Shown here: positions 34,496-53,754 of the stretch, piece by piece
Numbering within the stretch: the first letter of the stretch is position 1
Layout: each line of letters starts with the position of its first letter
Source: Paracoccaceae bacterium
Lineage (GTDB): Bacteria > Pseudomonadota > Alphaproteobacteria > Rhodobacterales > Rhodobacteraceae
Length of the DNA stretch: 64,000 nt
NCBI GenBank assembly: GCA_020447005.1
Contig: JAGRDO010000060.1
Coordinates: 3,228 to 67,227, forward strand
Direction: 5' to 3'
Translations under genes and position numbers: made by a program
The notes under the pieces: generated by a model
Database searches by the model: none
Seen by the model: the letters and a program-made list of their open reading frames with translations, nothing else
Told to the model about the DNA's origin: nothing

Positions 34496-35269
34496 TCATA
34501 TCCAATCGAGATTGACCTTTGTAATCGGAAAGCGCCCGGCGATCGCGTGACGAAGCGCGCGAAACCGTGGCCGCAATTCGTGAAACTTCTTTTCATGCGT
34601 TTCAGCGACAGTCAGCCCGATATTCTCGAACAGGTCCTGCTCGAGCATCGCTTCCAAAAGATCAAGCTCGGCACCTTCGATATCCATCTTCAGAAACGCT
34701 ATACGACCGTGATCCTTCACCACGGTACGGATGAAATCCGGCAGGTCGACAAGGGTGACGTCTATGCCGCTGCCATCCGCCTCATCGATATTCCGTCCAC
34801 CCGCGATCACGGTGCTTTTCACCGATCCGCCTTTGGGATTGTCGTCGAAGTTCGCGGCGCGCATCAGCCGGACCGAACCGGAAGCGGTTCCGACGGCGGC
34901 ATTGTGCAAGGTGACATTCGGCAGATCGGCACAGCGTTCGCTGATCTTGCCAAATGCGTAAGGATCGGGTTCGAACGCGTGGACAAATGCCCCGGTTTCG
35001 GCCAGCGGGAAGGTAACGTCGCCGACATTGGCGCCGCAGTCGAGAACCACGTCACCCGGCCGCAGCATGGACAAAATCCCCTGCATCAGCCCTTTGGCAT
35101 GAGCATGGCGCAGATTACGCTTTTGCCTGCGCTTTTCCTTTTCCTTCTCAAGCTCTTCGGCGCTTTTTTCGACCTTGTTGTTGCGTTCGACCATAGGAAC
35201 CCCGTCTGTCGACAGCCCTAGCCGCAGCTGCATTTGCCATCCGTTCAACAATGCCGCCGTGTCCGGCAA
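34496..35269 (-). CDS. FkbM-family methyltransferase (island gene 1)
   Basis: VVLDCGANVGDVTFPLAE.GAFVHAFEPDP..F, then a C-terminal FLKMDIEGAELDLL. These are FkbM hallmarks. The true start may be ATG 35233 or 35194. Confidence 0.75.
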   Translation of the reverse strand: MPDTAALLNGWQMQLRLGLSTDGVPMVERNNKVEKSAEELEKEKEKRRQKRNLRHAHAKGLMQGILSMLRPGDVVLDCGANVGDVTFPLAETGAFVHAFEPDPYAFGKISERCADLPNVTLHNAAVGTASGSVRLMRAANFDDNPKGGSVKSTVIAGGRNIDEADGSGIDVTLVDLPDFIRTVVKDHGRIAFLKMDIEGAELDLLEAMLEQDLFENIGLTVAETHEKKFHELRPRFRALRHAIAGRFPITKVNLDWI

Positions 35270-35359
35270 GCTACAAGTCTCAATTGCCGGGCCCTTCGCA
35301 CGGTTGACAGGGGACTCGCCCCGACTGCTATAGCTTGGTTAACGCATTCTTACCCGCGG

Positions 35360-36883
35360 GTGACCGTAGTGACCGCCAGCCTGCCAAAACGGATGGGCCA
35401 TATCTGGATCGGACCAAAACCTGCGCCGGAATCCTGGATGCGGAGCTGGCCCGAAAAACACCCGGATTGGGACTATCGGATCTACGACAACCAGTTTTTG
35501 CAGGACTACAGGTTCCGTACCCGCAACCTGATCAACGAATACTTCTGGCGCGGCGAATATGCCGGTGTTCAGGACCTCATGCGGTACGAAATTCTGTATG
35601 AATTCGGCGGCTTCATGGCGGATGCCGATTCCATCTGCCTTCACCCCGTCGACGAGCTGCTAACCGGACCGGGCGCCTATACCGTCTATGACGGGCCCAA
35701 TGAGGAAGAGCGCGGCGTGTCGCCGTTTCTGGCCTGCGAGCCCCGCAATCCACTGGTGGGTGAAGTGATCGAGAGGTTAAGTCGGCTGGAACCGTGGGAA
35801 CTGCGAAAACCCTTTCAATCGACTGGAAACCGTTTCCTGATGTCTCTCATCCGGCAATGGGGTGAGGACAGTCTTACGATCTGGCCTTCGCATTATTTCA
35901 TTCCATGGCACCACACCGAGCCGGAGAATGTCTATCGCGGGCCGGACAAGATTTATGCCGAACAGAAATGGGGCACGACCACCTGGAGCTATAACCGCGG
36001 CGAGGATGAGGGCAGTCAGAGGGTTTTGTCGCGCAACGAAGTGTCCGAGCGGGCGGCCACCCTGCGCCGCAGGCTGGCGGAACGGCTGCAACCCGCTCTT
36101 GCCCGGACCGGCCTTGCCGAAGCCGCCCGGCCGTTCGTCGGGGCCGGGGATCTGCCAGAACAGCAACCCGAATTTCGCGACCGCGTTCAGCGTCTGAACA
36201 CGGCACTGATCGCGAAAATGACGCAAGCAGAACTCGATCCGCTGTTCCACGGGCGGCTTTTTTACCGCGACAGGCAGCGCTACCCCTTGACCGAAAGCCC
36301 CTTCATGAGCCGCACTGCGGCCCTGCGCGCCCATCTTGCCACGCGGCTCGCCGGCTTTCGCAACGCCATTCAGATCGGGGTCGATACCGGGCATCTGATC
36401 CTTCTGCACAAGACCGCTCAACCGGATGCGAGTATTCTTGCATTCGACGCCTGCCAACCATCTGGCCGCCATGCGGCGCGCACCGATGTCTATGTCCCCG
36501 CCGCCATGCAGTGGCTAAAGGACGAGTTCCCCGAAAGCCTCACCTTCCTTGGTGGCAGACCCGCGCGCACCATTCCGGGCCATCTGTCCCGCGTGCCGGA
36601 CTGGAAGGCGGACCTGCTGCATTTCAACGGCATCGATGTAAACTTCCTGAAAAGCTACGGCGCCGCGATCGGCGCCCTTGAGCCTGATGGTGAGATCCTC
36701 ATCCATGACATTGATGCCAACGCGGTTCAGTCGCGGATCGAGGAATTGCAGATGATCGGGGAAGTCGCCGATCCGCTGGAATACGTTGACTTCGGCACGG
36801 GCGGAGGGGCTTGCGCGCGGCTGCAGCGCCGGCCCGAGGGTGAAATGGCGCCAGCGGCATATCAGGCCAAAGTCAGTAATTGA
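35360..36883 (+). CDS. GT32-like glycosyltransferase (DXD sugar-binding region) with a C-terminal methyltransferase-like domain (island gene 2)
   Basis: LPKRMGHIWIGPKP...DWDYRIYDN..., YAGVQDLMRYEILYEFGGFMADADSICL (DXD), as in Gly_transf_sug/OCH1-type enzymes. The C-terminal about 170 aa (IQIGVDTGH...ILIHDID) looks like a class I MTase but is weak. The start (GTG 35360) is uncertain. Confidence 0.6.
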   Translation: MTVVTASLPKRMGHIWIGPKPAPESWMRSWPEKHPDWDYRIYDNQFLQDYRFRTRNLINEYFWRGEYAGVQDLMRYEILYEFGGFMADADSICLHPVDELLTGPGAYTVYDGPNEEERGVSPFLACEPRNPLVGEVIERLSRLEPWELRKPFQSTGNRFLMSLIRQWGEDSLTIWPSHYFIPWHHTEPENVYRGPDKIYAEQKWGTTTWSYNRGEDEGSQRVLSRNEVSERAATLRRRLAERLQPALARTGLAEAARPFVGAGDLPEQQPEFRDRVQRLNTALIAKMTQAELDPLFHGRLFYRDRQRYPLTESPFMSRTAALRAHLATRLAGFRNAIQIGVDTGHLILLHKTAQPDASILAFDACQPSGRHAARTDVYVPAAMQWLKDEFPESLTFLGGRPARTIPGHLSRVPDWKADLLHFNGIDVNFLKSYGAAIGALEPDGEILIHDIDANAVQSRIEELQMIGEVADPLEYVDFGTGGGACARLQRRPEGEMAPAAYQAKVSN

Positions 36884-37577
36884 TGTAGTGGCTCTGGATG
36901 ACCTGACCCGGGGGACCTTGGCGCGGCTCTTTGCGGACAACGTAGAAAATGAATTGCGGCGCGGTATAGCGGTGCTCGGCTCCGCGCGCTTGCAGTGTCG
37001 GGTCATCTATCGGGCGGGGCGGTTCGCCACCCTTGCGCGAGAATGTCCAGCATCCCAGCATGCTGTAGCCCATGCTGGCGACCCAGTACCTCCAGGGGAT
37101 GTCCGGACCAACCTGATAGAACCCATGCCCGAACCAACCGTCGGTCCCGACACAGGAAACGAAGATGCCGCCCTCGTTCAGCATGGCGTCAACGTTGCGG
37201 AAAGACTGGGCTATGTCGAAAACATGCTCGGTCGTTCCGCCGTCATAGATCAGATCAAAACGGTTCCTGAGGTCATCGCCGACCGGAACACTGAGGTCAT
37301 GAACATGTTCGGCCCCTTCAATCGCCGAGAAGTCCAGACTTTCAAGCACGGGCCAGCCGATCGTGCGCAGATAGGTTTCGCAGAACCCGTCGTCCTGAAA
37401 CAGGTCTTCGCGTCCGGCCTTGATACCCATCTTGTCAAGCTCGGCGATCAGGCGCTCGGCCCAGCCGGCGGGGCGGAAGTGCATTTTCTGCCGGCCCAGC
37501 ATGATACCGCCCTTGCAGTCCTTCACGAGGGGCGCGATCCGGGCCAGCTGGATCGCGATATTGATGCTGATGCCCAT
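36873..37577 (-). CDS. Methyltransferase-like protein (island gene 3)
   Basis: RFDLIYDGGTTEHVFDIAQSFRNVDAMLNEGGIFV matches the post-I/II/III blocks of class I SAM methyltransferases. Motif I is atypical. The 3' end overlaps the convergent upstream gene by 11 nt. Confidence 0.5.
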   Translation of the reverse strand: MGISINIAIQLARIAPLVKDCKGGIMLGRQKMHFRPAGWAERLIAELDKMGIKAGREDLFQDDGFCETYLRTIGWPVLESLDFSAIEGAEHVHDLSVPVGDDLRNRFDLIYDGGTTEHVFDIAQSFRNVDAMLNEGGIFVSCVGTDGWFGHGFYQVGPDIPWRYWVASMGYSMLGCWTFSRKGGEPPRPIDDPTLQARGAEHRYTAPQFIFYVVRKEPRQGPPGQVIQSHYINY

Positions 37578-37724
37578 GATCTGGCCCCGTCCTCCATGCC
37601 CTTGCTTGCGGCTTTTGCCCGATGCAGCTAGCTTCGGCAACAGTTAGTGGCTGGCTGCCGAAGGGATGGTTTGCATAGAAGCCACACACCGGCAGAACTT
37701 CATATGGAGGATAGGGCGGGGTTA

Positions 37725-38801
37725 ATGGCAGAAACTTCGCATCCCTACGCGACACTGGCACCCGACGCATTCTGGCGCAGCGCGGTCGCCGAACGCGATG
37801 CCATGGAAATTACCGGCCTCTGGAAGCCGAAATTTCCGATCACGCAGGACATGCGGATTGTCACCGCCGGATCCTGCTTTGCCCAGCACATTTCCCGCGC
37901 CGTGCAAGAGCGTGGCTTCAACTGGTATAATGCGGAAACGGCCCCCGGTTCGGCCGAGCTTGCCCGCCGCTACAATTACGGTGTCTTCAGTTTCCGAACC
38001 GGGAACATCTATACGACCCGGATGCTGAACCAATGGTTCCGCTGGGCACGCAGGCCTGACGACTGCCCCGATATCTACTGGACGTCGGACCTCGGATTCC
38101 AGGATCCGTTTCGCCCCAACATCGAGCCCGACGGCTTCGCCACGCTGAGCGAGGCGCGCGCTTCGCGCCGGGCGGTTCTGGCGGCCGTCGGCGACGCCAT
38201 GCGCAAGGCCGACATATTCGTGTTCACGCTCGGTCTTACGGAATGCTGGAGGAGTGCCGACGGCCAGATCGAATTCGCGGCCTGTCCGGGGACTTCGGCC
38301 GGTCACTTTGACCCTGTGGAGCATGTGTTTCACAACATGGGGTTCAAGGATGTAACGCGGGAATTGAGCCGCGCGCTTGCGAACCTTCGTGCCGTCAACA
38401 AGCGCGTGAAAATCCTTCTGACCGTATCGCCGGTGCCGCTGACAGCGACGGCATCCGGCCAGCATGTTCTGACTGCGACCTCGCATTCCAAGGCCATTCT
38501 TCGCGCGGCGGCCGGGACAATCGCCGCCGAACATGAAGACGTCGACTATTTCCCCTCATACGAAATCATCACGCATCCCGTTTGGGGGGGGCGTTTTTAT
38601 GCCGAAAACCGGCGTTCGGTCCTGCCGGAGGGTGTCGCTTTCGTAATGGACCAGTTTTTCGCCGCGATCGGGGCGGAAGCCGCGGCGGCGCCGAAACAGA
38701 AGCCCCGTCGCGCAACCATGACCGCAGATACAGACGATCTGGTCTGTGAAGAGGAAATGCTTGCGGCTTTTGCGCCCAATTCCACCCGCGGCGCATCATG
38801 A
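37725..38801 (+). CDS. GSCFA-domain protein (island gene 4)
   Basis: Literal family motif IVTAGSCFAQHI near the N-terminus, and TVSPVPL later in the protein. About 358 aa. Confidence 0.75.
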   Translation: MAETSHPYATLAPDAFWRSAVAERDAMEITGLWKPKFPITQDMRIVTAGSCFAQHISRAVQERGFNWYNAETAPGSAELARRYNYGVFSFRTGNIYTTRMLNQWFRWARRPDDCPDIYWTSDLGFQDPFRPNIEPDGFATLSEARASRRAVLAAVGDAMRKADIFVFTLGLTECWRSADGQIEFAACPGTSAGHFDPVEHVFHNMGFKDVTRELSRALANLRAVNKRVKILLTVSPVPLTATASGQHVLTATSHSKAILRAAAGTIAAEHEDVDYFPSYEIITHPVWGGRFYAENRRSVLPEGVAFVMDQFFAAIGAEAAAAPKQKPRRATMTADTDDLVCEEEMLAAFAPNSTRGAS

Positions 38802-39535
38802 CCAGGAAAGTCATTCTTTTCGGTGACAGCCATCTGGCGGCGTTGAAACTGGCGACAGGCCGGATCGCACCACCCGAGGGGTGGGAGGTTTCCTTCTGGG
38901 GTACTGCCGGAACGCGCTTTCGCAACATATCCTGGCGCGATGGCTGTATCTGCCCGGATGATACGGCCACCGAACAGGCGTTTGCGCGTTTCAGTGGCGA
39001 AGGAATTACCAGACTTGATCCGGCGGAATATGACGCGGTCGTCTTCGTTGGCGCGCGGATCCGGCCGGGTGCCATCCTGCCCGACATCCTGAACCATGTC
39101 GCCCACCCGACCCGTCACCTGACCCGCGAATACATCGGCCTCGTATTGGCTGAACACCTGCTTCGCCACAGTACCTATCAGATGGCGGCCGCAATGGCGG
39201 CCGGTGGCAAGACAAAGGTTTACCTTAATCCCATTTCGTTCGAGACCGCTGGAAAGCAGCCACGGCCGCGCGCCTACAAGGTCGCGCGCGAGGCCACGCA
39301 TGATCATGTTTCAGAAATCTGGCGGCTAACGGAGCGGCTGCTGGCGGAAGACGGGATCACCCTGATCGCTCAACCCGTCGAGACGATCGTCGAGGGATAT
39401 TATACGGATGCCCGCTTTGGCGTTGGGCAGAAGGACCATGTTCACAAGAACGCCGAATATGGCGCCCTGATCCTGGAAAGGATATTTGACGCGCTGTCGC
39501 AGAAGACGAAGACGGCGATCAGAAAAGCGTCGTGA
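38798..39535 (+). CDS. Hypothetical SGNH-like protein (island gene 5)
   Basis: Block-I-like VILFGDSHL at the N-terminus and block-V-like DHVHKNAEYG near the C-terminus. ATGA overlap with the GSCFA gene. Confidence 0.4.
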   Translation: MTRKVILFGDSHLAALKLATGRIAPPEGWEVSFWGTAGTRFRNISWRDGCICPDDTATEQAFARFSGEGITRLDPAEYDAVVFVGARIRPGAILPDILNHVAHPTRHLTREYIGLVLAEHLLRHSTYQMAAAMAAGGKTKVYLNPISFETAGKQPRPRAYKVAREATHDHVSEIWRLTERLLAEDGITLIAQPVETIVEGYYTDARFGVGQKDHVHKNAEYGALILERIFDALSQKTKTAIRKAS

Positions 39536-41384
39536 AACGGTCGGGCAGGCGATAAAGATCCTTGCTGCGCATGTTCTTGAAGAACCAGTTGCCGGTGGAC
39601 GGCGCCTGGCTGCGCCCCTCGACCATCGCCTTGCGGAAATCGGGAAAATCCATGGTTTCTGCAACCGGTTCCAGCCGCGACAAGAGATCGAAGCTTTCGG
39701 TTCCGGTATCCCATGAATTCTTGGCCCGGCCGGTTTCGTCCATCGCCCCCAACCGAGATTCATTTAGTGATTTCCGACTGTTAAGCCGAAGTGTGGAAAT
39801 TTCGACATCCACGAAACGCAAGTGAAACAGGTAAAGGCTGGGGTCCAGCGCCACGTTTTGCAGGTTGGATCCGTGCCCGCCGATGGAAAAATTGGTGCGG
39901 CCGCGAATGATGCAGGGCTTGGCGTAGTTCGAGTTCAGCCGGAAATTGCGGCGCACTGACAGGATGGGGGCGTCCGCCCGGATCGGATCGGGCTCGCTTG
40001 CCGGGGTGTGGACCATCTCGACCGCGAAAGGAGAGAGCGCCGGAGGAGGCCGGCCATTGGCAAACTTGGAGTTCAGATAGTCGCGGATATTGCCCCCGGC
40101 ATCCGGGTCGAGCACGACAAGCTCGTCAACATCGTTGCAGATCACCCAGTTGTAATAAAGCGTCAGACCGCTTGCGAACGACGACAGGGCGCCCCAGCGC
40201 CGCCGGTCAAAGCGGGAGTTGTCATCCTCTCGCGGCATGTGGATGACGTTCGCGCCCTTGGCGATCCGGTCGATCTCGGGGTCCTCGCCATGGCGCAGGA
40301 TGTAAAGATTTTCGCGCCCGATCTGACGTTCCCAATGCGCGACCCAGCGTTCAAGGAAGAAGTGGTCGCGGTAGAGCATCGTGACGGCGGCCACATCCGC
40401 CTTGCTTGGGTCGGGGCCGGGTTTAACCGCAGGCGCCGGCTGAACCCGTTCCTTTGCGGCCGGCTCTGCTTCCAGGTCAGATTGCGGTGCGGCGGGTTCG
40501 ATCCCCTCGGGCAGCGGCTGCTTTCCGATCCAGCTGATCCGCCGCGTGCCGACCGTCGCGCGCAGCGCGTCATAGCCGATCTGGGCAAGTCCGGCCTCGG
40601 TCAGGACCTCCCATTTGCGGTAATGGACGGTGTAGATCTTGCGGTCTTCCGGCAGCGGCTCGCCCCGCAGAACACCACCAAGAATGTAGTGCTGCGCTTC
40701 GGGCAGTTCGCGCCATTTGAGGCCGGCGCGCTGGATGGCGATGGGCAGGCTCATCTGGTCGAGATAGGGGCGCTTGTTCTCCAGATCCGGGATTGCGTCG
40801 ATGGTCTGGGCGGTCTCCAGCCAGACCTCGGGGAAGCGTTTGCCGTCGCCATTTCTGTGCTGCTCGGGAAACAGCACGAAACCCGAACTGTAGTAGGGGA
40901 TCATCGGTTTGCGCTGATCGCGCATCAGGGTGACCCGTTCATCGGGAACATTCATCCCGAATGCGCCATAGATCGGTTCCCAGACCGTTTGCGGCGCCCA
41001 GTACATCGAAGCCGCGACCGAGGCCGAGACATGCCCTTCGCGAACCAGATTGCTGATCCGGTTCTTGCGAAGCATCAGGATGTCGGAATCCATGAAGCCT
41101 GAAAATTCGGTATCGCGCGGCTCAAGGCTGGCAAGGATCTTGTTGCCGTGCGGATAGGCCGGGTCGAACATGCCCTCGGTGCGGAACGGCCGAACGTCGC
41201 AGCGCATCCGCCTAAGGGTTTCGACGACGTCCTTGTCCACCTCGCCGATCCGGTGTTCCGGACAATAGCCGACAAGCCTTACTTCGGAAGACAGGCATTG
41301 GCGGATCGACGCCGCAAGATAGCACGCCATGTTCTGATAGCGTGGCGGCTCGACGATGAAGAAAAGAGTAAGCGTCGGGGACAT
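39519..41384 (-). CDS. Two-domain glycosyltransferase (island gene 6)
   Basis: The N-terminal half (PHGNKILASL...FMDSDILML, YLDQMSLPIAI) is paralogous to 52750..53754. The C-terminal half (YYNWVICNDVDELVVLDP, LNSNYAKPCI, GGHGSN, LFHLRFVD, ...YRLPDRFTTLF) is paralogous to 43355..44281. Confidence 0.65.
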   Translation of the reverse strand: MSPTLTLFFIVEPPRYQNMACYLAASIRQCLSSEVRLVGYCPEHRIGEVDKDVVETLRRMRCDVRPFRTEGMFDPAYPHGNKILASLEPRDTEFSGFMDSDILMLRKNRISNLVREGHVSASVAASMYWAPQTVWEPIYGAFGMNVPDERVTLMRDQRKPMIPYYSSGFVLFPEQHRNGDGKRFPEVWLETAQTIDAIPDLENKRPYLDQMSLPIAIQRAGLKWRELPEAQHYILGGVLRGEPLPEDRKIYTVHYRKWEVLTEAGLAQIGYDALRATVGTRRISWIGKQPLPEGIEPAAPQSDLEAEPAAKERVQPAPAVKPGPDPSKADVAAVTMLYRDHFFLERWVAHWERQIGRENLYILRHGEDPEIDRIAKGANVIHMPREDDNSRFDRRRWGALSSFASGLTLYYNWVICNDVDELVVLDPDAGGNIRDYLNSKFANGRPPPALSPFAVEMVHTPASEPDPIRADAPILSVRRNFRLNSNYAKPCIIRGRTNFSIGGHGSNLQNVALDPSLYLFHLRFVDVEISTLRLNSRKSLNESRLGAMDETGRAKNSWDTGTESFDLLSRLEPVAETMDFPDFRKAMVEGRSQAPSTGNWFFKNMRSKDLYRLPDRFTTLF

Positions 41385-43102: not shown

Positions 43103-43354
43103 GTGCGTAAAGTCCTGTTGCTGTTCTTGTTCTTGTCTGCTCGGGTTCTTTTTTCGCCGATTTGCCTTTCTGACGCAAAACCTTTCGGGTGTTCGTCCCC
43201 GGGCCCGGGCGCATTGTTGCCTTTGCACACCTCCGGGCAGCGATTTCTCGTCCGGAACCGGGGGGCAAAGCTTGACCTCGCCATCCACTGCCCGGCATGA
43301 TCATCGCGCGGGTTCCGGCGAAAACAGCCGTGAAAGGCGGTCCGGACCCATGGC

Positions 43355-45165: not shown

Positions 45166-47009
45166 CGGGTCCCGCCGCCAAAACGGACGCTTCGGCACTG
45201 CTCAGGGCGCTTGCCGCACGCGAAAGCCCCCATGGCAGGGTCATGGCGGTGTCGATGATGAAGGATGAAGCGCCCTTTCTTCTGGAGTGGTTTGCCCATC
45301 ATCTTGCCGTCGGCTTCACCGACATTCTTGTCTATACCAACGACTGCTCCGACGGCACGGTCGAGATGCTGCAACGGCTTGAGGCGCTCGGGCTCGGGTA
45401 TCACCGGCCGAACAACATTCGCGAAGGGATCAAACCGCAGCCTTCGGCGTTGAACCATGCCCAGATCGAACCCCTTGTCGGGCAGGCGGACTGGGTGCTT
45501 GTCTTCGACGCCGACGAATTCCTTTCGATCAATCACCCGTCGGGCACGCTTGACGGGATGCTTGACGATGCGGTGGCGCGCGGCGCGAACGGCATCGTCA
45601 TCACCTGGCGCATCTTCGGGTCGTCCGGCATCATCGACTGGTCACGCGCGCCGGTGACCGAACAATATACGCATGCCGCGCCGCCCCTGTGGAACAAGGG
45701 TTGGGGGGTCAAGACGCTGTTCCGGTTTGACCCTGCTTACTGGAAGCTCGGGATTCACCGCCCAACGATCAAGAACAAGCATCTCGATACCGATTTTCCG
45801 CAAACCGTGAAGTGGCTGAACGGCTCGGGCCAGCCGATGGAGGAATATTTCACCTTTCGCGGGTGGCGGTCGATCCGGCGAACGCTGGGCTATGACTGGG
45901 CCCAGATGAACCATTATGCCGTCAAATCGGTCGACAGCTATGCGGTGCGCAAGTTCCGCGGCAACGTCAACAACAAGGCGGACAAGTATAATTCCGACTA
46001 CTGGGCGCTTCAGGATCGCAACGAAGTGGAGGACCGGGCAATCCTGCGCCACGCACCGCGCCGGGCCGAGATCATGGCGGCGCTGATGGAAGATCCGGTG
46101 CTGAACCGGCTTCACTTCGCGGCTTTGGAAAGGGTTGAGGCGCGACTTGCCGATTATCGCAAGACCGAGGCCTATCAGGCATTGCGCGACGGGTTGGTCG
46201 CTGCATCGGCTGTCCCGATCACCCAGGTTGAAGCCAAACCGCCAAAGGCCCGTGACCCCGCGAAGATAGCGGAACTGATGAGCCGGGTGGAAAAGAAAGT
46301 CGCGGAAAAGCCGGTCAGCGAGCGCCGCAACACTCCCGTCGAGGGCTGGAATGCGGAAGACGATGGCACCTATCTCGGGGTTGCCGACGATCTTGCGCCC
46401 GACGGCACTTGCGACTGGGTGTCCAACCACGATATCGAGCTGCCCGCCGATGCGCGGGTTTTTACCCCGGTGGCGCTCAATGCCCTTTTGAAGGGCCGTT
46501 TCGACCGCCGCAATGCCCGAAACATCGAAGGCTACCTTGAAGGCTGCAACCGGCTTTTGGACATCGGTTGCGGTATCGGGTTTGTGGCGATGCGCGCGAT
46601 TGCCCGGCGCAGGGATCTGGTCGTGATGGCGCAGGACAGGCGCGGCGGATTGATCGACCTGGCCAAGCGGATCGCCGCGCGAAACAATCTGACCGACACA
46701 TCCCGGCTGAAGCTTTCCGATGGAAAGCTGGTATTCGCAAATGAACCCGACGACATGGCATCCGGACTAGCCGCCTACCTGCGCGATTTCAGACCCGATG
46801 TCCTGCGCCTCTCAGAGACGACCCACTTGCCGCCGGCGCGTCTTGCGACTTGTGACCTTGCCGGCATCCGGCGTGTCATTCTGCCATTCGACCGGGATGC
46901 TGACGCCGAAAATCTTCGACGTTCGTACAATAAGGTTTTGGCAGGCAAGGGGCTGGTCGAGGTGGTCGAGCGCGCGGCTTCAGGGTCTTTGCAATTCGAC
47001 AGGCGCTAG
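45162..47009 (+). CDS. Bifunctional GT2/GT92-like glycosyltransferase plus class I SAM methyltransferase (island gene 11)
   Basis: The N-terminal half is paralogous to 4575..5660 (KDEAPFLLEWFAHHLAVGFTDILVYTNDCSDGT, VFDADEFL, ITWRIFGSSG). The C-terminal part has a canonical SAM motif I, LLDIGCGIGFVA. ATGA overlap with gene 10. Confidence 0.7.
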   Translation: MTGPAAKTDASALLRALAARESPHGRVMAVSMMKDEAPFLLEWFAHHLAVGFTDILVYTNDCSDGTVEMLQRLEALGLGYHRPNNIREGIKPQPSALNHAQIEPLVGQADWVLVFDADEFLSINHPSGTLDGMLDDAVARGANGIVITWRIFGSSGIIDWSRAPVTEQYTHAAPPLWNKGWGVKTLFRFDPAYWKLGIHRPTIKNKHLDTDFPQTVKWLNGSGQPMEEYFTFRGWRSIRRTLGYDWAQMNHYAVKSVDSYAVRKFRGNVNNKADKYNSDYWALQDRNEVEDRAILRHAPRRAEIMAALMEDPVLNRLHFAALERVEARLADYRKTEAYQALRDGLVAASAVPITQVEAKPPKARDPAKIAELMSRVEKKVAEKPVSERRNTPVEGWNAEDDGTYLGVADDLAPDGTCDWVSNHDIELPADARVFTPVALNALLKGRFDRRNARNIEGYLEGCNRLLDIGCGIGFVAMRAIARRRDLVVMAQDRRGGLIDLAKRIAARNNLTDTSRLKLSDGKLVFANEPDDMASGLAAYLRDFRPDVLRLSETTHLPPARLATCDLAGIRRVILPFDRDADAENLRRSYNKVLAGKGLVEVVERAASGSLQFDRR

Positions 47010-47015
47010 CCCCCC

Positions 47016-47942
47016 CTAGCCCGCCGCGCGTTTGCGCATGTCGAGGCCGGGGTTTGCAGAAAGAATATCGTCGCGCGCCTTCAGGGCAAAAAGATAGTTG
47101 TCCTGATCGATCAGCACCCGTGCGGCACCAAGCGTCAGCTTTGGATGACGGCTTTGCATCGCGGCGTCGATCAGGCTGCGCGCCCACTTGCGCACTGTCC
47201 GGCGGCTTCGCATCTGCTGCCAGAACCGGTGGCCCAATTGACCCGTTTCCGCGAAGTCGCGCAACGCGAGTTCGAGTGCCCCGGACTTGATCACCACACG
47301 CACGGCCTCATGCGTTGCATGGCCAAGGCGGACCATCTGTACTCCGCGACCAGCAAGGCGCGCGGCATGGGCCTTGTCCTCGGGCACGAAGGGATCAAAC
47401 AGGACAGCCGCGTTTTCAAGCTTTTGCACGGCCTCGGCGGCATCAAGAAATTCAGGCCTTTCCCAGTCACTGTTTCTTACCGCCCAGGGAAAGCGCCGCT
47501 CAAATGGCGCGATCTTCCGGCTCATCGTGGATTGCGGGGAAAAGGCAAGGACCGCCGCGCCGGGAACAATTGGCGCAAAGTTCAAAGCGGCAAAGCCACC
47601 CATCGATGCGCCGGTGAACACAACGCGCGAAAAGCCACGGAAAAAACCCCTTTCCGCGAGCGATGCTATAAGCCTTGGAGCGGTTTCCTGACGAAACCAG
47701 TCTTTGGCGTGGCTCTGAACGCCCAGAAGCGAATACCCAAGCCCCCGGGCCTGACGATGCAGCCATGGCAGTCGCGGATAGGGTTCATCGAGGGTTGCAA
47801 GATTGTCAAAGGCGACAAGAAGCACCTCGCCACGTGGTTCGTACCAAAGATAGGCCGTATCGGCGACAACGCGGAACGCGGCGTCCGGCCGGGCCGCGCC
47901 AAGTTCGCGAATAGGGGGCATGGCTTGCTCGATCTCGGCCAT
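47016..47942 (-). CDS. Alpha/beta-hydrolase-like protein with an intact GxSxG (island gene 12)
   Basis: VVFTGASMGGFAALNF is a nucleophile elbow G-A-S-M-G. It is a paralogue of 5828..6766. Confidence 0.5.
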   Translation of the reverse strand: MAEIEQAMPPIRELGAARPDAAFRVVADTAYLWYEPRGEVLLVAFDNLATLDEPYPRLPWLHRQARGLGYSLLGVQSHAKDWFRQETAPRLIASLAERGFFRGFSRVVFTGASMGGFAALNFAPIVPGAAVLAFSPQSTMSRKIAPFERRFPWAVRNSDWERPEFLDAAEAVQKLENAAVLFDPFVPEDKAHAARLAGRGVQMVRLGHATHEAVRVVIKSGALELALRDFAETGQLGHRFWQQMRSRRTVRKWARSLIDAAMQSRHPKLTLGAARVLIDQDNYLFALKARDDILSANPGLDMRKRAAG

Positions 47943-48054
47943 TCCTGTCGTCCTTTACTTCTGTTTGACACGAAGCCGCGCGTTGTTTCAACTGGCATGG
48001 CGCACCCGGATCGCCTATCGTCCGGGTGGACGAACGGAACCCGCGCCCAGGTCG

Positions 48055-49581
48055 ATGAACCCGAGAGCGCAGGACTGGGCAGAGAGAGGGCATCCATTGG
48101 CGCGAAAGTCGAAACTGGTCGCGGGCCATGGCGTCATCGTCAAGGCGGCGAACGGGGATGTGATAAGCTACGATCAGACCGGGCTTACAATGCGCCTGTC
48201 GGACCGCGTCATCGAGGATATTGCGCTTCGCCTGGGCACGTCGCGCGGCGAAACCGGATCGATGGGTGCAGAGGCAGGCAAATCTGCCAATGCGCGCGAG
48301 GTCGCCGACCTTCTTGACGGGATCGACGCCTGGGACCCGCAGATCGACGGTGACTGGCTGGTCTTTTCCGCCCGGCTTCCCGGCCGCCAGGGCGTGCGTC
48401 GCTATCGCAGACCCATCACGGGCGGTCAGGTGATCGCCGACACCCCGGGCCCGATCTACGGGCTGCTCGGCCTTGGCGGCCCGCGCGCCGCCCATGCCTT
48501 CGATGGCCGTCCCGACTTTCCGCAACATATCCTGGCGCCCGCCGACGATATCGGGGCGGTGGGACATGCCGGCGTCGAACGCGCGGCGATCAGCGCGGGG
48601 CTCGAACAGGTGCGGGAGATGACGCGCGAGGCCCTGGTTGCAAATGCACTTTTGAACTGGCGGCTGGATGAATATGACAGCCTGCCGCTGATCATGACGC
48701 GCGTAGAGACGGACAGTTCCGCGACCAGTGCCTCATTGAGCGACGGAATGGCGTTCGACAATATGATCGCTGCGGCAAAATGCCTGAAGATGGCCGCGCA
48801 AAGCCTTGGGAAAAAACCAAAACTGCTCGCGATCCTGTTGGACTTCGCGCTTGAGGAAATGTCGGGGTCGGCATCGGCATATCGCGACGGCATGCTGGCG
48901 CTTATGGCGCGGGCCGAAGATGAACTGGGCAAGCTTGGTTATGATCGGCCGCTTTTCGTGGCCCTGTTCGAAAGCGGAACGCCCGAGATCGCAACATCGG
49001 CCGCGATCGAAGGACAATGGGAACTGGCGTGGAACCATGGCGAACATCGGCTGGTCTTTGCGGCCCCCAGCTACATGTTCGCGCTCGACCCTTTCGACCG
49101 GCTGACCGAGGACGGCGCGCGTGACGCCGCCGAGATGGTCGCGCGGGCGGTGCTGGCAGAGGAAACCTGGCGCTGCCCGGTCCTGCATCTGGCCGAGCGA
49201 AGCGTCTTGGGGGGCGGCAAGACCATCCGGGTCGTCGCGCGCTCCATCGCGCCGCTGATCATCGATGCCGACGATCCGTTTGGCGCCGGGAAAAGCGCGG
49301 GCTTCACCCTTGTCGGTGCCGAAAACGGCGCGAAGATCAAGAAGGTGGAATGCGATTCCTCCGATCCGATGGCGATCCTTGTGCATTGTGACAAGCGCCC
49401 TGAAGGCACAAATCTGCGGCTGGGATACGCCCATGACCCTCAGGCGGGCAAATCCCCGGGGGCCAATGCCGGTTCGCTGCGCGATGACTGGCAGCTTCAA
49501 GGGCGCTCCGGGCGGATGTTGTATCGCTGGGCGTTGCCTGTCCTGTTGCCGATAACGGACGGGGGTGGCCGGGATGCTTGA
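48055..49581 (+). CDS. Hypothetical protein (island gene 13)
   Basis: About 508 aa. No motif identified with confidence. The start is at ATG 48055 (the track ORF begins at 47920, inside the divergent intergenic region). Confidence 0.4.
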   Translation: MNPRAQDWAERGHPLARKSKLVAGHGVIVKAANGDVISYDQTGLTMRLSDRVIEDIALRLGTSRGETGSMGAEAGKSANAREVADLLDGIDAWDPQIDGDWLVFSARLPGRQGVRRYRRPITGGQVIADTPGPIYGLLGLGGPRAAHAFDGRPDFPQHILAPADDIGAVGHAGVERAAISAGLEQVREMTREALVANALLNWRLDEYDSLPLIMTRVETDSSATSASLSDGMAFDNMIAAAKCLKMAAQSLGKKPKLLAILLDFALEEMSGSASAYRDGMLALMARAEDELGKLGYDRPLFVALFESGTPEIATSAAIEGQWELAWNHGEHRLVFAAPSYMFALDPFDRLTEDGARDAAEMVARAVLAEETWRCPVLHLAERSVLGGGKTIRVVARSIAPLIIDADDPFGAGKSAGFTLVGAENGAKIKKVECDSSDPMAILVHCDKRPEGTNLRLGYAHDPQAGKSPGANAGSLRDDWQLQGRSGRMLYRWALPVLLPITDGGGRDA

Positions 49582-50353
49582 GCTGCCCGACAGCCTTCCC
49601 CCAGGCGCGCTGACCGGTGCGTCGCCCGAGATCTTTGCCGGGGCGGCCGGTGCCTCGGACTGTCTTTGGTTCCACGGACGCAAGGATCAGTTCGAGGTGG
49701 AGGGCCAGATCGTCCGGGGCTGGCACGCGCTGACCGGATCGCGTGAAGCATTGCCGACGCAACCCAATGCCGGGAACGCGGTACTGGCGGAAAGCGAAGA
49801 TCGTTACGGGCTGCAGTGCCAGACGGGTCTTCATTGCGGGCTGTCGGTCGCCGGTGCGCTGCGAAGTGCGGCAAGATTTTCGATGTCGGTGATTTATCTG
49901 CCCCCGCCTGAAGCCGAGGCGCGGACGTTGCTTACCGTCAATACCGGCCATTCGGGCGGAAAGGATTCCGACGCGAACTATCTGTTCCTGTCCGATGGCG
50001 GCGATACCTATACGATCAAGGATACCAAGGAGGCGCTTGAACTCTCGGTGCCGGTCGCCGCCCGACCGGACGGACCGCGACTTGCCACCGTGACCATGAC
50101 CGGGGCTAACCTTGCGTTTCAGGAAAACCGTGGACCAATCGCCCGGATGACAGGCTCCGACCCGGGAATGGATGCCGCGGCCGAATTCTTCATCGCGGCG
50201 CGGAGCCACAGAAAAGGCTTGCAAAAGACATTGGGCGGCGGGGTGATCCTTGACGTCATGCTTTGGCCGAACCACACCCTTCTTCTGCCGCGCGGACCCG
50301 AGGATATCGCGCAGCTACAGGCGCTGCACCGATATTTCCTGTGGGAATACTGA
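49574..50353 (+). CDS. Hypothetical protein (island gene 14)
   Basis: The ATG at 49574 overlaps the upstream stop (ATGCTTGA). About 259 aa. No family recognised. Confidence 0.4.
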   Translation: MLELPDSLPPGALTGASPEIFAGAAGASDCLWFHGRKDQFEVEGQIVRGWHALTGSREALPTQPNAGNAVLAESEDRYGLQCQTGLHCGLSVAGALRSAARFSMSVIYLPPPEAEARTLLTVNTGHSGGKDSDANYLFLSDGGDTYTIKDTKEALELSVPVAARPDGPRLATVTMTGANLAFQENRGPIARMTGSDPGMDAAAEFFIAARSHRKGLQKTLGGGVILDVMLWPNHTLLLPRGPEDIAQLQALHRYFLWEY

Positions 50354-50356
50354 GCC

Positions 50357-52666
50357 TTGTCTTTCGCGCCAGATACGATCCGCGGCGGCAATATCTGCGT
50401 GATCTGGGTGGACGACATGATCGATGTCCACACGTGGCGCGATACGTTCGGCCTGCGGATTCAGACGCCCAACCTTGATCGATTCATGTCTCGCGGCGTC
50501 CGTTTCACCAATGCCTATGCGACGGTTCCGCTTTGCGCCCCTTGCCGGGCGGAACTGGCCACCGGCCTGTCGCCCTTCAAGTCGGGACTGGTCGATCTCA
50601 ATCGCTTCTGGCGCGATCTTTATCCGCCCGAGCGCGCCTGGGCCTATGATCTGCGCCGCGCGGGGTTTTACAACTTCACGACCGGAAAGGTGGACGCAAA
50701 TTACCGCCCGATGCCGGAAGAATACCGCCGTATGCTCTTTCATGAGGACGTACCGGCGGCCGACAGCTCTGACCGTACAAAAATCAAGGAATATCTGGGC
50801 CGTGGCCCCGGCATTCGCGGCATCAACCATCCGGATGACGATGGCAGCCAGGACGACCGGTTCTATGATAACCGCGTGGCGCAGAATGCGATCGACTTTC
50901 TGGAACGGGCCGATACGAAACGCCGCCACCTGATCCAGCTTGGTTTCAAGCATCCTCATTACAACCTCGACTGCCCGGACCGGTTCTACCAGCGTTACGA
51001 TCCAAGCCAGATCCGCTGGCCGGCCATCGCCGCGGAAGAGGACTACTATGGCCCCCAGCCCGGCTTTGCCGTCTATGAGGCTGCCTATATCGCCAATGGC
51101 CGCTGGACACCGGAAAAGTCCGGCGATGAGGCTTGGCGGCAGGTCGTGCGCGCCTATTTCGCCGCGATAAGCCATGTCGACCACGAAATCGGCCGGTTTC
51201 TCGACGCGCTGGAATCGTCGCCACTTGGCGCAAGCACGACGGTCATCTTTCTGTCCGACAATGGCTTCAACCTCGGCAATCACGACAGTTTTCACAAGAT
51301 GAGTCAGTGGGACAGCGCGGCTCATGTTCCGCTGGCGATCTGGCATCCGTCGATGAAGGAAGGGCGCGAAGTCGACCTTCCGATTTCTTTGCACAATGTT
51401 CCCAAGACCATCATGCAGCTTGCCGGTCTTCCCCCCCGGCCCGACTGGACATCCGGGCAATCGCTCCTGCCGCTTATCAACCCTGAATTCGGCCGCTACG
51501 ACGACACGAAATCGCCCGTTACCTGCGTTTTCGGAACGCTTTCGGTGCGACCCTCGGTCGAAGGATATCGCCAGTTCAGGTACTTCCGCTATCCGAACGG
51601 CGAGGAGCACGTCTATGACATTGTCGCCGATCCCGGCGAAACGACCAACCTGATAGAAACCGCTCCGATCGAGTTCCTGCGCAAGGAACTGGTCGATGGC
51701 GCATTGGGGCTTGGGCTTGATCTGCGCGGGTTCGAGAATCCGGCGTCGGGTGTCAATGCAATGATGGCCGTCGATGGAAGCGTCATTCTTGCGGGTGGCG
51801 GCGGCGACAACGATTATTGGGCCTATGGCGCGGATGCCGAAAAGATCCGGGAAGAAAAGGACGGAGGAACCGACACGCTTTGGTACATGGCCGGCCCGGA
51901 CGATTATGTTCTTCATTGCCCGCCCTATGTCGAAAAGATCCGCATCGCGACGGTCGTTGCGCGTCAGGAATCGGACGTGCAGCTCGGTAAAACGATCAAG
52001 ATCGTTGCCCATCCCGACAGCCCGATCGAGTTCGAGACATCCGAGCGGGTGACGGTAGAAGTTTCCGGCTCGGACGGCGACGATATCATGCGGGGGCCGA
52101 AATACGGCGGGGCGACGTTCCATGGCGGCGCAGGCAACGATCTGCTGGAAGCCACCGCGACGCTGCCGAACAGCCGGCATTTCTTTTACGGGGGGGCCGG
52201 GGACGACACACTCTCGGGCGGTCCGGGAAACGACGTGCTGGACGGCGGGACCGGCAATGACGTGATTTACGGCAGACGCGGCAACAACAGGATTTACGGC
52301 GGCCACGGTAACGATTTCATTCAGGACGGGGATGGCGCGTCTTTCATCGATACCGGGCCGGGCCGCAATACGGTTGTGCTTGGCGACGGCGACGATGAGG
52401 TTCTGGTCGGGACAGGGACAAATCACATCAGCCCCGGCACGGGCGCCGTCACGTTTCGCGTGGCCTATGGTGGGGTGACGGTTGTCAACCGCTGGTCGGC
52501 CGAACAGATCTATGATCTCAGCCAGTGGCCGGGACCACCTGTCATCAGCCGACGGGACGACCAGACTGTGCGCCTTCGGCTTGGCCTGTCCATCGTCGAT
52601 ATATACCAGGTCGGAGACGCCGGGGCGGTTGCATCGCAGATCGTACAGACCGGCCAAGAAAGCTGA
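50357..52666 (+). CDS. Cys-type sulfatase fused to C-terminal RTX (hemolysin-type Ca-binding) repeats (island gene 15)
   Basis: The N-terminus NICVIWVDD... is followed by the sulfatase signature PLCAPCRAELATGLSP (C-x-P-x-R at 50534-50548). FLSDNG and a HK-type block are also present. Near the C-terminus are GGAGNDLLEA, GGAGDDTLSGGPGNDVLDGGTGNDVIYG..GNNRIYGGHGNDFI (about 52105-52420). TTG start, 3 nt after the upstream stop. Confidence 0.8.
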   Translation: MSFAPDTIRGGNICVIWVDDMIDVHTWRDTFGLRIQTPNLDRFMSRGVRFTNAYATVPLCAPCRAELATGLSPFKSGLVDLNRFWRDLYPPERAWAYDLRRAGFYNFTTGKVDANYRPMPEEYRRMLFHEDVPAADSSDRTKIKEYLGRGPGIRGINHPDDDGSQDDRFYDNRVAQNAIDFLERADTKRRHLIQLGFKHPHYNLDCPDRFYQRYDPSQIRWPAIAAEEDYYGPQPGFAVYEAAYIANGRWTPEKSGDEAWRQVVRAYFAAISHVDHEIGRFLDALESSPLGASTTVIFLSDNGFNLGNHDSFHKMSQWDSAAHVPLAIWHPSMKEGREVDLPISLHNVPKTIMQLAGLPPRPDWTSGQSLLPLINPEFGRYDDTKSPVTCVFGTLSVRPSVEGYRQFRYFRYPNGEEHVYDIVADPGETTNLIETAPIEFLRKELVDGALGLGLDLRGFENPASGVNAMMAVDGSVILAGGGGDNDYWAYGADAEKIREEKDGGTDTLWYMAGPDDYVLHCPPYVEKIRIATVVARQESDVQLGKTIKIVAHPDSPIEFETSERVTVEVSGSDGDDIMRGPKYGGATFHGGAGNDLLEATATLPNSRHFFYGGAGDDTLSGGPGNDVLDGGTGNDVIYGRRGNNRIYGGHGNDFIQDGDGASFIDTGPGRNTVVLGDGDDEVLVGTGTNHISPGTGAVTFRVAYGGVTVVNRWSAEQIYDLSQWPGPPVISRRDDQTVRLRLGLSIVDIYQVGDAGAVASQIVQTGQES

Positions 52667-52749
52667 GGCTTTGCTTTCGGACGGCTTCAACCCTGTTATA
52701 GTCCGACCAACAAGAATGGCGCGAAAAGCGAATGTCAGCGGGTTAGCAG

Positions 52750-53754
52750 ATGGGCGACATGGGCAAGAGCGACGCAAGCGGCGTCAATGTATTCTTCATT
52801 GCCCAGGATGGGCGGCTGGCCTATGAGGCCATCATTTTCGCGGCGACGTTTCGCGCTGCCAATCCGGAGTTTTCCGGCAAGCTGATCGCGGGCGAACCGC
52901 AGCCTGGCCCGCTATGGCAGGGCGACCCGAGGCTTAAACCCGAGTTTCGCGAATTGCTTGTGCATTTCGGGGTGGAAATTCGGCCGTTTGAAAACGCGCA
53001 CTTTGGCCAGAAATACCCATATGGCAACAAAATAGAGGGGCTGTCCGCCCTTCCTGCTGGTGAGCCTTTTCACTTTTTCGACACGGACACCATTTTCACC
53101 GCACCGCTTTCGGACTTGAGCATTGACTATCGCCGCCCTTCGGCTTCGATGCGGCGCGAAGGTACTTGGCCACAGATCGAGCTTTACGGACCGGGCTATG
53201 GAGCGATCTGGAAGTCGCTATACGATCGGTTCGGGCTTGACTTCGAAACCACGCTCGATCTTGGCCAGCCGGATGAATACTGGGAGCGGTATCTCTACTT
53301 CAACGCCGGCTGGTTCTTCCATGAATGCCCGCGAAAGTTCGGTGAGCGCTTCCTCGAATTTGCCCTGACGATCCGGGACGACGCGCCAGAGACGCTGGTC
53401 TGCCAGGAGCTTGACCCATGGCTGGACCAGGTGGCCCTGCCCCTTGTCATTCACTCTTTCGGCGGCGGCAGGCCGGGAAAAGGGCTTGAAGGTCTCGATG
53501 GCGATGTCTCGTGCCATTACCGCACCCTGCCCCTGCTTTACGCGCGCGAATCCAATGCCGCCGTCACCGCACTTGAGACGGCGATCGCGCCGAACCCGAT
53601 CAAGAAGGTGCTGAAGACCTATGATCCGCTTCGAAAGCTCGTCTACCAGGAAAAAGGCCGGAAAATCCGCGAGATGTTTGATCGAAACGATCTGCCGAGG
53701 CGCGAGGCGATGATCCGCAACCGGATCAAGAAGGCGGGTCTGTGGATGAGGTAG
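52750..53754 (+). CDS. Nucleotide-diphospho-sugar transferase-like protein (island gene 16)
   Basis: Paralogue of the N-terminal half of 39519..41384 (YPYGNKIEGLSAL...FFDTDTIFT, WLDQVALPLVI). Confidence 0.5.
   Translation: MGDMGKSDASGVNVFFIAQDGRLAYEAIIFAATFRAANPEFSGKLIAGEPQPGPLWQGDPRLKPEFRELLVHFGVEIRPFENAHFGQKYPYGNKIEGLSALPAGEPFHFFDTDTIFTAPLSDLSIDYRRPSASMRREGTWPQIELYGPGYGAIWKSLYDRFGLDFETTLDLGQPDEYWERYLYFNAGWFFHECPRKFGERFLEFALTIRDDAPETLVCQELDPWLDQVALPLVIHSFGGGRPGKGLEGLDGDVSCHYRTLPLLYARESNAAVTALETAIAPNPIKKVLKTYDPLRKLVYQEKGRKIREMFDRNDLPRREAMIRNRIKKAGLWMR

Follow-up and report, generated by a model that had tools for sequence, protein, structure and literature searches.

A family of variable glycosyltransferase clusters in Rhodobacteraceae built around an RTX sulfatase and two proteins resembling phage tailspike chains

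The window considered here – the whole 64-kb stretch of DNA that was analysed – is a chromosomal stretch (GC content ~61%) of an uncultured member of the Rhodobacteraceae, and at positions 34496–53754 it carries an island of 16 genes (g01 to g16; Table 1) rich in soluble proteins of glycosyltransferase (GT) and methyltransferase (MT) type. The island is one expanded member of a cluster family whose named matches lie almost wholly within the Rhodobacteraceae/Paracoccaceae, and for which no publication was found. The constant unit of the family consists of a PF13704-type GT-A protein (g09 and/or g11), g13 – an SGNH/SASA-fold protein related to phage tail fibres – the lectin-like g14 and g15, a sulfatase fused to RTX repeats, with the hydrolase-like g12 usually near; around it lies a variable shell, in which lineages gain and lose soluble GTs, O-methyltransferases and SGNH/GSCFA acyl-esterase-like genes. 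The original prediction, a reading of the bare sequence that preceded this work, treated the RTX sulfatase as incidental; together with g13 and g14 it is the conserved centre. Tentatively, and at somewhat under an even chance, we take the cluster to direct the strain-variable decoration of a surface glycan, primed and exported by products encoded elsewhere and coupled to a secreted or released module for glycan recognition and editing.

The family was charted by a scan of one genome per species, anchored on g13, which returned 127 relatives; 80 loci with 10-kb flanks were kept, and gene content was counted in 52 loci with full flanks. Open reading frames (ORFs) at the related loci were called heuristically, and their synteny is based on tblastn coordinates together with public gene calls. 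Conservation of the neighbourhood, which the original prediction had recommended checking, extends over at least 80 Rhodobacteraceae loci, none of which lies inside a standard Wzx/Wzy or ABC locus. As the anchor, g13 is present at every locus, and g14 and g15 join it at nearly all of them; the three are contiguous in that order at 41 of the 72 loci that hold all three, and, both in the window and in the three isolate genomes that were read, neighbouring members of the three overlap or all but touch each other. At least one cluster-type (PF13704-type) GT occurs at all 52 full loci, while the GT and MT genes for which Table 1 gives no larger count are found at 1–19 of the 80. Three complete genomes share the order g11-like GT, g13, g14, RTX sulfatase and g08, followed by differing GTs (GT61, GT92), and their chromosomal neighbourhoods are unrelated, with at least four contexts across genera. 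Protein searches place the family in the same group: a word-indexed search with g13 gave 408 matches, of which those listed were all hypothetical or nameless and those with a named organism nearly all Rhodobacteraceae, and when 1.84 billion representative proteins were searched exhaustively, only 283 matched at E ≤ 0.001.

In its minimal form, known from Tabrizicola, Frigidibacter and freshwater Rhodobacter spp., the cluster consists of one operon of 5–7 genes, all in the same direction, that lies between dinB and terC and has the order GSCFA, SGNH, g14, g12, one g09-type GT, g13 and g15, reduced in at least one genome to g14-g12-GT-g13-g15. It encodes a single GT of ~300 residues and no MT at all. 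As the GT is interleaved with g13, g14 and g15, these appear to form one functional unit, and the wealth of GTs and MTs in the window can be read as an expansion around it. This bears on the idea that two unrelated modules merely lie side by side, namely a secreted sulfatase set for environmental (e.g. algal) sulfated glycans and an independent GT island. Such an arrangement would accord with the nearest solved structures of g15 – the ulvan rhamnose-3-sulfatase 6hr5 and choline sulfatases – with the many alga-associated genera among the carriers and with the lack of any sulfotransferase found in the island. However, a GT of the cluster type is retained at every full locus and across at least four chromosomal contexts, the minimal operon has its GT and g12 enclosed by g14 and g13, all on one strand, and freshwater Tabrizicola and Gemmobacter are carriers too, so mere adjacency appears quite improbable.

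Outside the constant unit, gene content behaves like that of a serotype locus. Nineteen presence patterns occur among the 52 full loci. In a relative with a 90% identical g13 and the same island at the same site, next to the same DUF808 flank (locus L088), g07 is missing between g06 and g08 (4076–4118 of that locus) and the order is otherwise unrearranged, which amounts to a clean single-gene indel inside an operon; a relative at 61% identity has a reshuffled, 11-gene version of the island. Several GTs and modifying enzymes of strain-variable content, as in surface-polysaccharide loci, are thus present, but the other hallmarks of such loci – a priming transferase, and a flippase and polymerase or an ABC exporter with OPX/PCP proteins – are found neither in the window nor at the 80 loci.

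By Pfam annotation, which covered essentially every gene of the window, there are no WbaP/WecA, Wzx/Wzy, Wzm/Wzt, Kps or OPX/PCP components in the 64 kb, and no nucleoside diphosphate (NDP)-sugar, type I secretion system (T1SS), integrase or transposase genes. In none of the 16 island proteins does a 19-residue window exceed 1.7 on the Kyte–Doolittle scale, and none has an N-terminus resembling a signal peptide, in agreement with the earlier observation, made by eye, that transmembrane segments and signal peptides are lacking. The accompanying statement that priming, export and NDP-sugar genes are missing is true of the window, and for exporter and priming genes it extends to the 80 loci: when the neighbouring ORFs in their 10-kb flanks were clustered, no gene for an exporter, a priming enzyme or a T1SS recurred. 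Those that do recur are housekeeping genes (acyl-CoA synthetase, SBF, TerC, chorismate synthase, DinB), and the ABC genes noted beside three or four of the related loci proved to be MalK-type or binding-protein-dependent importers. Just one large membrane protein recurs close to versions of the cluster, namely a 639-residue protein with ~9 transmembrane segments and no Pfam family, encoded ~3.7 kb downstream of the minimal operon at locus L078 (17419–19338) and, as proteins of the same type, ~4–5 kb downstream at L075, L076 and L085 (Tabrizicola clade); it is probably unrelated, as terC and aroC lie between it and the operon.

The original prediction had offered as one hypothesis a soluble assembly line for a heavily O-methylated cytoplasmic glycan. 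Soluble GTs are known to build O-methylated glycans in this manner, as in the mycobacterial gene sets for methylmannose and methylglucose polysaccharides and in the GT–GT–MT protein A064R of Paramecium bursaria Chlorella virus 1 (PBCV-1). The composition of the island would suit a polymethylated, acylated cytoplasmic polysaccharide, since it offers soluble GTs, several S-adenosylmethionine (SAM)-dependent MTs and four esterase/acyltransferase-like proteins with no exporter. Nonetheless, in the mycobacterial and PBCV-1 systems gene content is fixed and no secreted RTX protein is known as a partner, whereas here the MTs are optional – the minimal operon and many loci lack all of those found in the island – and the Pfam families of the island (FkbM, PF13704, GT32) give no hint of homology to the mycobacterial methyl-polysaccharide proteins (ManT, MeT1, MeT3, MmpH or those of Rv3030-3037). 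Gene content also varies between close relatives, unlike what would be expected of a housekeeping cytosolic polymer, g13 is kin to proteins that recognise surface glycans, and the invariant member is an RTX protein, of a class whose RTX domains fold only in extracellular calcium (PMC3034196). Taken together, these points disfavour a cytoplasmic end product, which we regard as very improbable.

In the interpretation that we prefer, that of surface-glycan decoration, the soluble GTs, MTs and acyl enzymes would act at the cytoplasmic face, where they would assemble or decorate a glycan of the O-antigen, capsule or exopolysaccharide (EPS) kind that bears O-methyl and O-acyl groups and varies between strains, and the genes for the lipid-carrier priming enzyme and the exporter would lie in other parts of the genome. 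The RTX sulfatase g15 would leave the cell, probably via an unlinked type I system, fold in external calcium and edit the surface glycan or associate with it, with glycan recognition supplied by g13 and g14. Gene content and its variability, synteny, folds and conserved motifs are directly supported, whereas we infer the surface location of the product, the secretion of g15 and its physical or functional partnership with g13 and g14. In favour of this interpretation are the serotype-like variation in gene content, the consistent lack of linked priming or export genes, the ties of g13 and g14 to receptor-binding proteins of phages, the joining of the GT with g13, g14 and g15 in one unit, the apparent activity of g15 and the precedents in R. 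capsulatus, S. meliloti and C. crescentus described below. This interpretation continues the earlier hypothesis of a dispersed envelope-glycan pathway; that hypothesis and the earlier one of cytoplasmic protein glycosylation both survive, the former ranked somewhat above the latter.

Several considerations weigh against surface-glycan decoration. Beside some loci one would expect wzm/wzt, wzx/wzy or a priming gene, and there is none at any of the 80. The minimal form is too small to build a polymer, so that there it could only decorate something made elsewhere, and with no sulfotransferase found, the sulfate ester on which g15 would act lacks an explanation. Furthermore, as g13 and g14 have no signal peptide, their presumed extracellular role lacks an export route, and the esterase serine is missing from g13.

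The identification of an RTX-repeat sulfatase in the original prediction is borne out by profile scores of 130 bits for Pfam Sulfatase and 57 bits, in three stretches, for HemolysinCabind. The protein has ten GxGxD/N motifs (5–11 in orthologues). All 55 orthologues compared keep the formylglycine motif CAPCRAExxTG intact, the metal-binding VDD and SDNG are present, and g15 is apparently a conserved, active enzyme; no gene for a formylglycine-generating enzyme or anaerobic maturase is found in the window. Conservation along the protein is uniform, with no variable Ser/Thr-rich region, and is lowest over the last 50 residues, a variable C-terminus that would fit a type I secretion signal. It is as a type I secretion substrate that g15 is presumed to leave the cell; genes for an ABC transporter and a membrane-fusion protein linked to g15 are found neither in the window nor at the related loci.

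If g15, or another type I substrate, were itself the acceptor, the soluble GTs – together with the MTs and acyl enzymes where present – would modify it in the cytoplasm before export, the main rival explanation, which we take seriously but doubt. Cytoplasmic protein glycosylation would make a lipid carrier, a flippase and an exporter needless, and is the simplest account of why no membrane component is linked to the cluster at 80 loci; it would also account for a secreted protein that is always co-encoded, for the abutting genes and for the frequent contiguity of g13, g14 and g15, and the minimal operon with its single GT fits it. Flagellin glycosylation islands follow the same logic as the one proposed for an RTX glycoprotein. 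Two of the island GTs resemble toxin-type protein GTs, the top PDB match of the g08 profile being the Legionella SetA glucosyltransferase (E 0.008) and g02 giving an additional weak match to TcdA_TcdB (E 0.0055), and RTX glycoproteins, namely SwmA and oscillin, do exist (PMC3034196). However, uniform g15 lacks the kind of variable Ser/Thr-rich region that carries strain-variable flagellin glycans, none of the known bacterial protein-GT families (Maf, HMW1C/GT41, BAHT, EarP, toxin-type GT44) has a Pfam or NCBIfam match in the island, and the tail-fibre-like g13 and lectin-like g14 would be left without a role. To our knowledge, glycosylation of a type I substrate prior to transport has not been demonstrated, which also counts against this explanation.

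The two proteins that the original prediction had left without a recognisable family, g13 and g14, can now be given confident folds by AlphaFold2 (AF2) modelling and Foldseek comparison. For g13, which has no match in Pfam, NCBIfam or PDB sequences, the AF2 model (42-sequence alignment, pLDDT 85.5) is closest among solved structures to the tailspike of cyanopodophage Pan3 (9vyh_o, E 2e-18), followed by the carbohydrate acetylesterase XAC1771 (7kmm, E 1e-11) and the sialate O-acetylesterase SIAE (8f9p, 2e-8). Among the predicted viral structures of BFVD it matches phage proteins down to E 1.5e-18, including a protein of Rhodobacter phage RcapNL and a Klebsiella phage head-binding-domain tailspike. 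Its distant profile matches (E 1e-15 to 1e-23) are proteins of 640–1027 residues; of nine that were tested, six hit PHROG 4201 ('tail fiber protein') with a match that covers or overlaps the part aligned to g13, and a seventh hits other tail PHROGs elsewhere along its length. Direct phage homology of g13 or g14 was found neither by tblastn against phage genomes nor in two scans of viral contigs. Phage receptor-binding proteins target surface glycans, and g13 is linked to them by its modelled fold and, transitively, by sequence.

Within this fold, the canonical catalytic residues of SGNH/SASA enzymes, a block I Ser nucleophile and a block V His, are not found in g13: the block I Ser is weakly kept (S207 in 30%, S208 in 70%), and conserved instead are E204/T205/D206 and Q307/W308/E309 (QWE). 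The N-terminal residues 1–62 (48097–48280) contain twelve residues that are invariant over 42 homologues, and yet are predicted to be disordered (pLDDT <50), which suggests that these ~60 residues may serve as a docking segment. The g14 model (pLDDT 87.8) has a LamG/ConA lectin fold; Foldseek relates it to trans-sialidase lectin domains and neurexin LNS domains (E ~1e-7), and its top full-length match is another chain of the Pan3 tailspike, 9vyh_p (TM 0.64/0.62). Adjacent g13 and g14 thus match two chains of one phage receptor-binding assembly.

These resemblances invite the suggestion that g13 and g14 are domesticated tail-fibre or tailspike parts, perhaps of a phage or gene transfer agent (GTA), which would bind or process the glycan made by the neighbouring genes and be released by lysis, with the RTX repeats serving as a calcium switch by which the sulfatase would stay unfolded until outside the cell. 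Besides the paired 9vyh matches, the RcapNL and PHROG 4201 relationships and the conserved yet disordered, docking-segment-like N-terminus of g13, it could draw on Rhodobacter capsulatus, in which the receptor-binding genes rcc01079/80 and rcc00171 of its GTA (RcGTA) adjoin capsule/EPS genes and rcc01079/80, phage-type glycan-binder genes, are co-regulated with the glycan genes they adjoin (PMC5026251). The window, however, contains no prophage, GTA or tailocin structural genes around g13 and g14, neither protein has a sequence match in phage genomes or viral contigs, no CtrA box (TTAA-N7-TTAA) is found in the window, and GTAs are not known for tightly spaced genes co-oriented with a sulfatase. 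What has been published on rcc01079/80 fits g13 and g14 poorly, and a direct equation of the two with the RcGTA head-spike proteins Rcc01079/01080 is contradicted by what is described of these (dominated by β-strands; patchy distribution); TspA (rcc02623), considered as a further candidate, sits at a different locus. A lysis-released phage or GTA module is accordingly an unlikely explanation.

There is a limited chance, well short of even, that the constant unit, taken with g12, is a self-contained system that has not been described before: either a line for glycosylation and acylation in the cytoplasm whose product is a glycosylated RTX enzyme, or a glycan-recognition pair derived from tail fibres working with a sulfatase that calcium switches on outside the cell. 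In either version, the shell of GTs and MTs would tune strain specificity, for example towards recognition by phages or GTAs.

Among known systems, a working model for g15 is offered by the AlgE mannuronan C-5 epimerases of Azotobacter vinelandii, secreted enzymes in which a catalytic domain is combined with RTX modules and which edit a polysaccharide after its export; they differ in their epimerase chemistry, and the algE genes are not known to lie among GTs. The exp/wge cluster for EPS II (galactoglucan) of Sinorhizobium meliloti is, like the present one, GT-rich and co-encodes a calcium-binding RTX-like protein, the secreted ExpE1 needed for the polymer (PMC1403797), but it also carries the type I secretion genes ExpD1/ExpD2 and dTDP-sugar genes, and ExpE1 lacks an enzyme domain. 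Among RTX proteins exported by type I secretion, some are glycosylated (SwmA, oscillin) or depend on a surface glycan, like the S-layer protein RsaA of Caulobacter crescentus, which is anchored by smooth lipopolysaccharide (PMC3034196); these, however, are structural surface-layer proteins, and rsaA has secretion genes adjacent to it, whereas g15 is an enzyme.

The capsule of R. capsulatus, the RcGTA receptor, provides a parallel within the same family: its genes are dispersed, with rcc01081-86, the initiation gene rcc01932 and wzc/wzb/wza (rcc01958-60) at separate loci (PMC10218006), and binder genes lie beside glycan genes (PMC5026251). Unlike the present cluster, the one in R. capsulatus has a sugar-nucleotide gene (lspL1) and no RTX sulfatase, and there is no demonstrated sequence relationship between them; rcc01080 is without homologues in other Rhodobacterales (PMC5026251), whereas g13 is widespread. 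The relationship to phage tailspikes and fibres with SGNH/SASA acetylesterase domains (9vyh; PHROG 4201) similarly extends to the fold and distant relatives of g13 and to a partner chain for g14, but the genes for these two lie on the chromosome without phage genes around them, their sequences have no direct match in phages, and the serine is not conserved.

The cluster occurs in more than 100 sequenced species (the 127 relatives above) and in hundreds of metagenome proteins, all annotated as 'hypothetical', and it unites, unusually, strain-variable soluble GTs and MTs with a presumably secreted RTX sulfatase and cellular homologues of tail-fibre proteins. Rhodobacteraceae are dominant alga-associated and freshwater bacteria, in which surface glycans control phage infection and GTA uptake. 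The system could uncover a new way in which such glycans are made or edited and could explain how hosts and phages exchange glycan-recognition domains; if g15 were glycosylated, it could be the first glycosylated type I substrate outside cyanobacteria. Several of the carriers are culturable type strains. Culturable carriers include Gemmobacter aquaticus A1-9, Yoonia litorea DSM 29433, Roseibacterium elongatum DSM 19469 (CP004372) and Jannaschia sp. CCS1, and complete genomes of carriers also exist for Rhodophyticola porphyridii (CP159473) and Gymnodinialimonas ceratoperidinii (CP079194).

Table 1. Genes of the island and of the satellite pair, with positions in the 64-kb window, and the number of related loci (of 80) with homologues and their identity
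Gene	Positions	Strand	Assignment and Pfam score	Loci	Identity
g01	34496–35233	-	FkbM-type SAM methyltransferase; Methyltransf_21 64 bits (cut-off 22.7)	7/80	
g02	35438–36883	+	GT32-type DXD GT; Gly_transf_sug 31 bits (cut-off 23)	13/80	
g03	36873–37577	-	Probable class I methyltransferase; sub-threshold Methyltransf_12, 23, 11 and 31		63–84% where found
g04	37725–38801	+	GSCFA protein, SGNH clan; GSCFA 167 bits	28/80 (with g05)	50–59%
g05	38798–39535	+	SGNH-like, N-terminal GDS motif; SGNH 20.8 bits (under cut-off 27)	28/80 (with g04)	31–65%
g06	39519–41384	-	Two fused GT-like domains: N-half g16-like, C-half g09-like		
g07	41384–42262	-	FkbM-type methyltransferase; Methyltransf_21 78.5 bits		
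g08	42290–43102	-	Small GT32/toxin-type DXD GT-like; sub-threshold Gly_transf_sug and Caps_synth	51/80	70–86%
g09	43355–44281	+	PF13704 GT-A; Glyco_tranf_2_4 34.7 bits (cut-off 27.5)	55/80 (g09 type)	26–80%
g10	44290–45165	+	Putative rhamnosyltransferase family; Rhamno_transf PF11316 166 bits	6/80	
g11	45162–47009	+	PF13704/GT92-type GT, helical linker, C-terminal MT domain (plausible); Glyco_tranf_2_4 80 bits	59/80	median 67%
g12	47016–47942	-	α/β-hydrolase-like serine enzyme; weak Esterase match	41/80	50–64%
g13	48097–49581	+	SASA/SGNH-fold with β-sandwich domains, 494 residues; related to tail-fibre/tailspike receptor-binding proteins	80/80 (anchor)	45–61%
g14	49574–50353	+	LamG/ConA-type lectin-like; start overlaps g13 end	77/80	31–49%
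g15	50357–52666	+	Cys-type (formylglycine) S1 sulfatase fused to RTX repeats, 769 residues	74/80	66–81%
g16	52759–53754	+	GT-like; paralogue of g06 N-half		
Satellite pair	4575–6766	+	PF13704 GT (Glyco_tranf_2_4 71 bits) and g12-like hydrolase		

The roughly eight GT domains with a DXD motif that had been recognised by eye are confirmed, in that a D-x-D motif can be read from the translations of all eight candidates (DAD, DSD, DVD, DCD, DVD, DDD, DAD and DTD). Five exceed the Pfam gathering score (g02, the C-half of g06, g09, g10 and g11), g08 remains below threshold, and two, g16 and the N-half of g06, have no family: g16 has no match in Pfam, NCBIfam or PDB sequences, and the g06 N-half has no family match. 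Residues 5–221 of g06 are 27% identical to g16, YPxGNK and FxDxD are invariant in an alignment of the family that the two form, and in other genomes a homologue of the g06 N-half of ~315 residues is found as a separate gene (L019, 17956–20666; L062, 15315–16268). The C-half of g06 scores 39 bits for Glyco_tranf_2_4 and is 48% identical to g09, the sole GT of the minimal operon. Among the accessory genes g08 is conserved best, and IWIDCDAF is invariant in it. Sequence and profile searches of the PDB with g13, g12, the g16/g06 N-half family, g10 and the GT domain of g11 gave nothing useful.

Of the approximately five MT domains proposed earlier, two – g01 and g07 – are firmly assigned by profile to the FkbM methyltransferases, and class I MT domains are plausible in the C-terminus of g11 and in g03, whereas the C-terminal 202 residues of g02 have no family match and no support as an MT. 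The g11 C-terminus combines the motif LDIGCGIG with sub-threshold MTS, Methyltransf_18 and NCBIfam CpaM matches and resembles the O-methyltransferase 5gm1 in the PDB (E 0.003). The earlier naming of a GSCFA, an SGNH-like and an α/β-hydrolase-like protein is firm for GSCFA (g04), while the Pfam matches of g05 (SGNH) and g12 are sub-threshold. Both nevertheless look esterase/acyltransferase-like from their motifs, g05 having FGDSH at residues 8–12 and g12 a GASMGG nucleophile elbow with conserved Asp and His columns. At the related loci g04 is always paired with g05; GSCFA proteins belong to the SGNH clan, and a function is known for no member (PMC9487903).

The gene structure of the island stands as first described: its 16 consecutive ORFs all have coding-type GC content at third codon positions (GC3) and agree with the gene calls on public metagenome contigs at ENA and NCBI that encode identical proteins (g13 being 'MAG: Rhodobacteraceae bacterium KDE03_10125' at NCBI), and where at least seven alternating transcription units had been proposed, eight strand blocks are counted (-,+,-,++,---,+++,-,++++), with very short or overlapping gene junctions. 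Genes outside the island are all housekeeping – infC, dnaB, alr, mlaE, radA, purF, surE, pcm, tatBC, hisBH, glutaminase, two glyceraldehyde-3-phosphate dehydrogenase (GAPDH) genes, valine-catabolism genes and Crp. The ORFs at 32708–33622(+) and 33659–34486(+) are spurious, the true genes there running on the minus strand. The view that the island is not recently mobile holds for this genome, in which the window shows no integrase, transposase, tRNA or GC anomaly, although the family sits in at least four unrelated chromosomal contexts in different genera. A plasmid origin was rejected, as the 19 kb found no match among 72,556 plasmids by megablast, and so was an anti-phage defence system, PADLOC being blank except for one marginal MT similarity. 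A shared promoter motif was likewise considered: two divergent intergenic regions each contain one exact copy of the 12-mer CGGAACCCGCGC, at 43306–43317 (between g08 and g09) and at 48035–48046 (between g12 and g13), but this is not significant, since 18 of 100 shuffles equal the count of CGGAACCCGCGC at ≤1 mismatch.

A satellite pair of genes elsewhere in the window is paralogous to the island, its GT being 37% identical to the GT domain of g11 and its hydrolase (5663–6766) 29% identical to g12 (blastp), which fits the dispersal that had been read from it. Directly upstream of the pair (region 3171–6766) lies a major facilitator superfamily (MFS) transporter of the MFS_3 'transmembrane secretion effector' type, the sole membrane protein adjoining any island-type gene in the window.

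Some further features of the window deserve mention. To the left of the island, a secreted, LapG-like BTLCP cysteine protease is encoded at 31888–32613 (+), adjoining a minus-strand gene (32720–33586) for a signal-peptide protein with ~13 GGGSGGGD repeats, which stem from a 24-bp tandem repeat of 11.7 copies (32911–33190), and a tail of DGPGKRE repeats; no Pfam family matches this protein, and it has no homologue around the other 80 loci. At 28139–29149, beside a DUF2147 protein and unrelated to the island, lies the gene for a Hint_2-domain protein of a type characteristic of Rhodobacterales. To the right, the DUF808 membrane protein that flanks the island is followed immediately by tandem GAPDH paralogues of 356 and 333 residues (54901–57224), and the GAPDH pair also follows the island on the public contigs.

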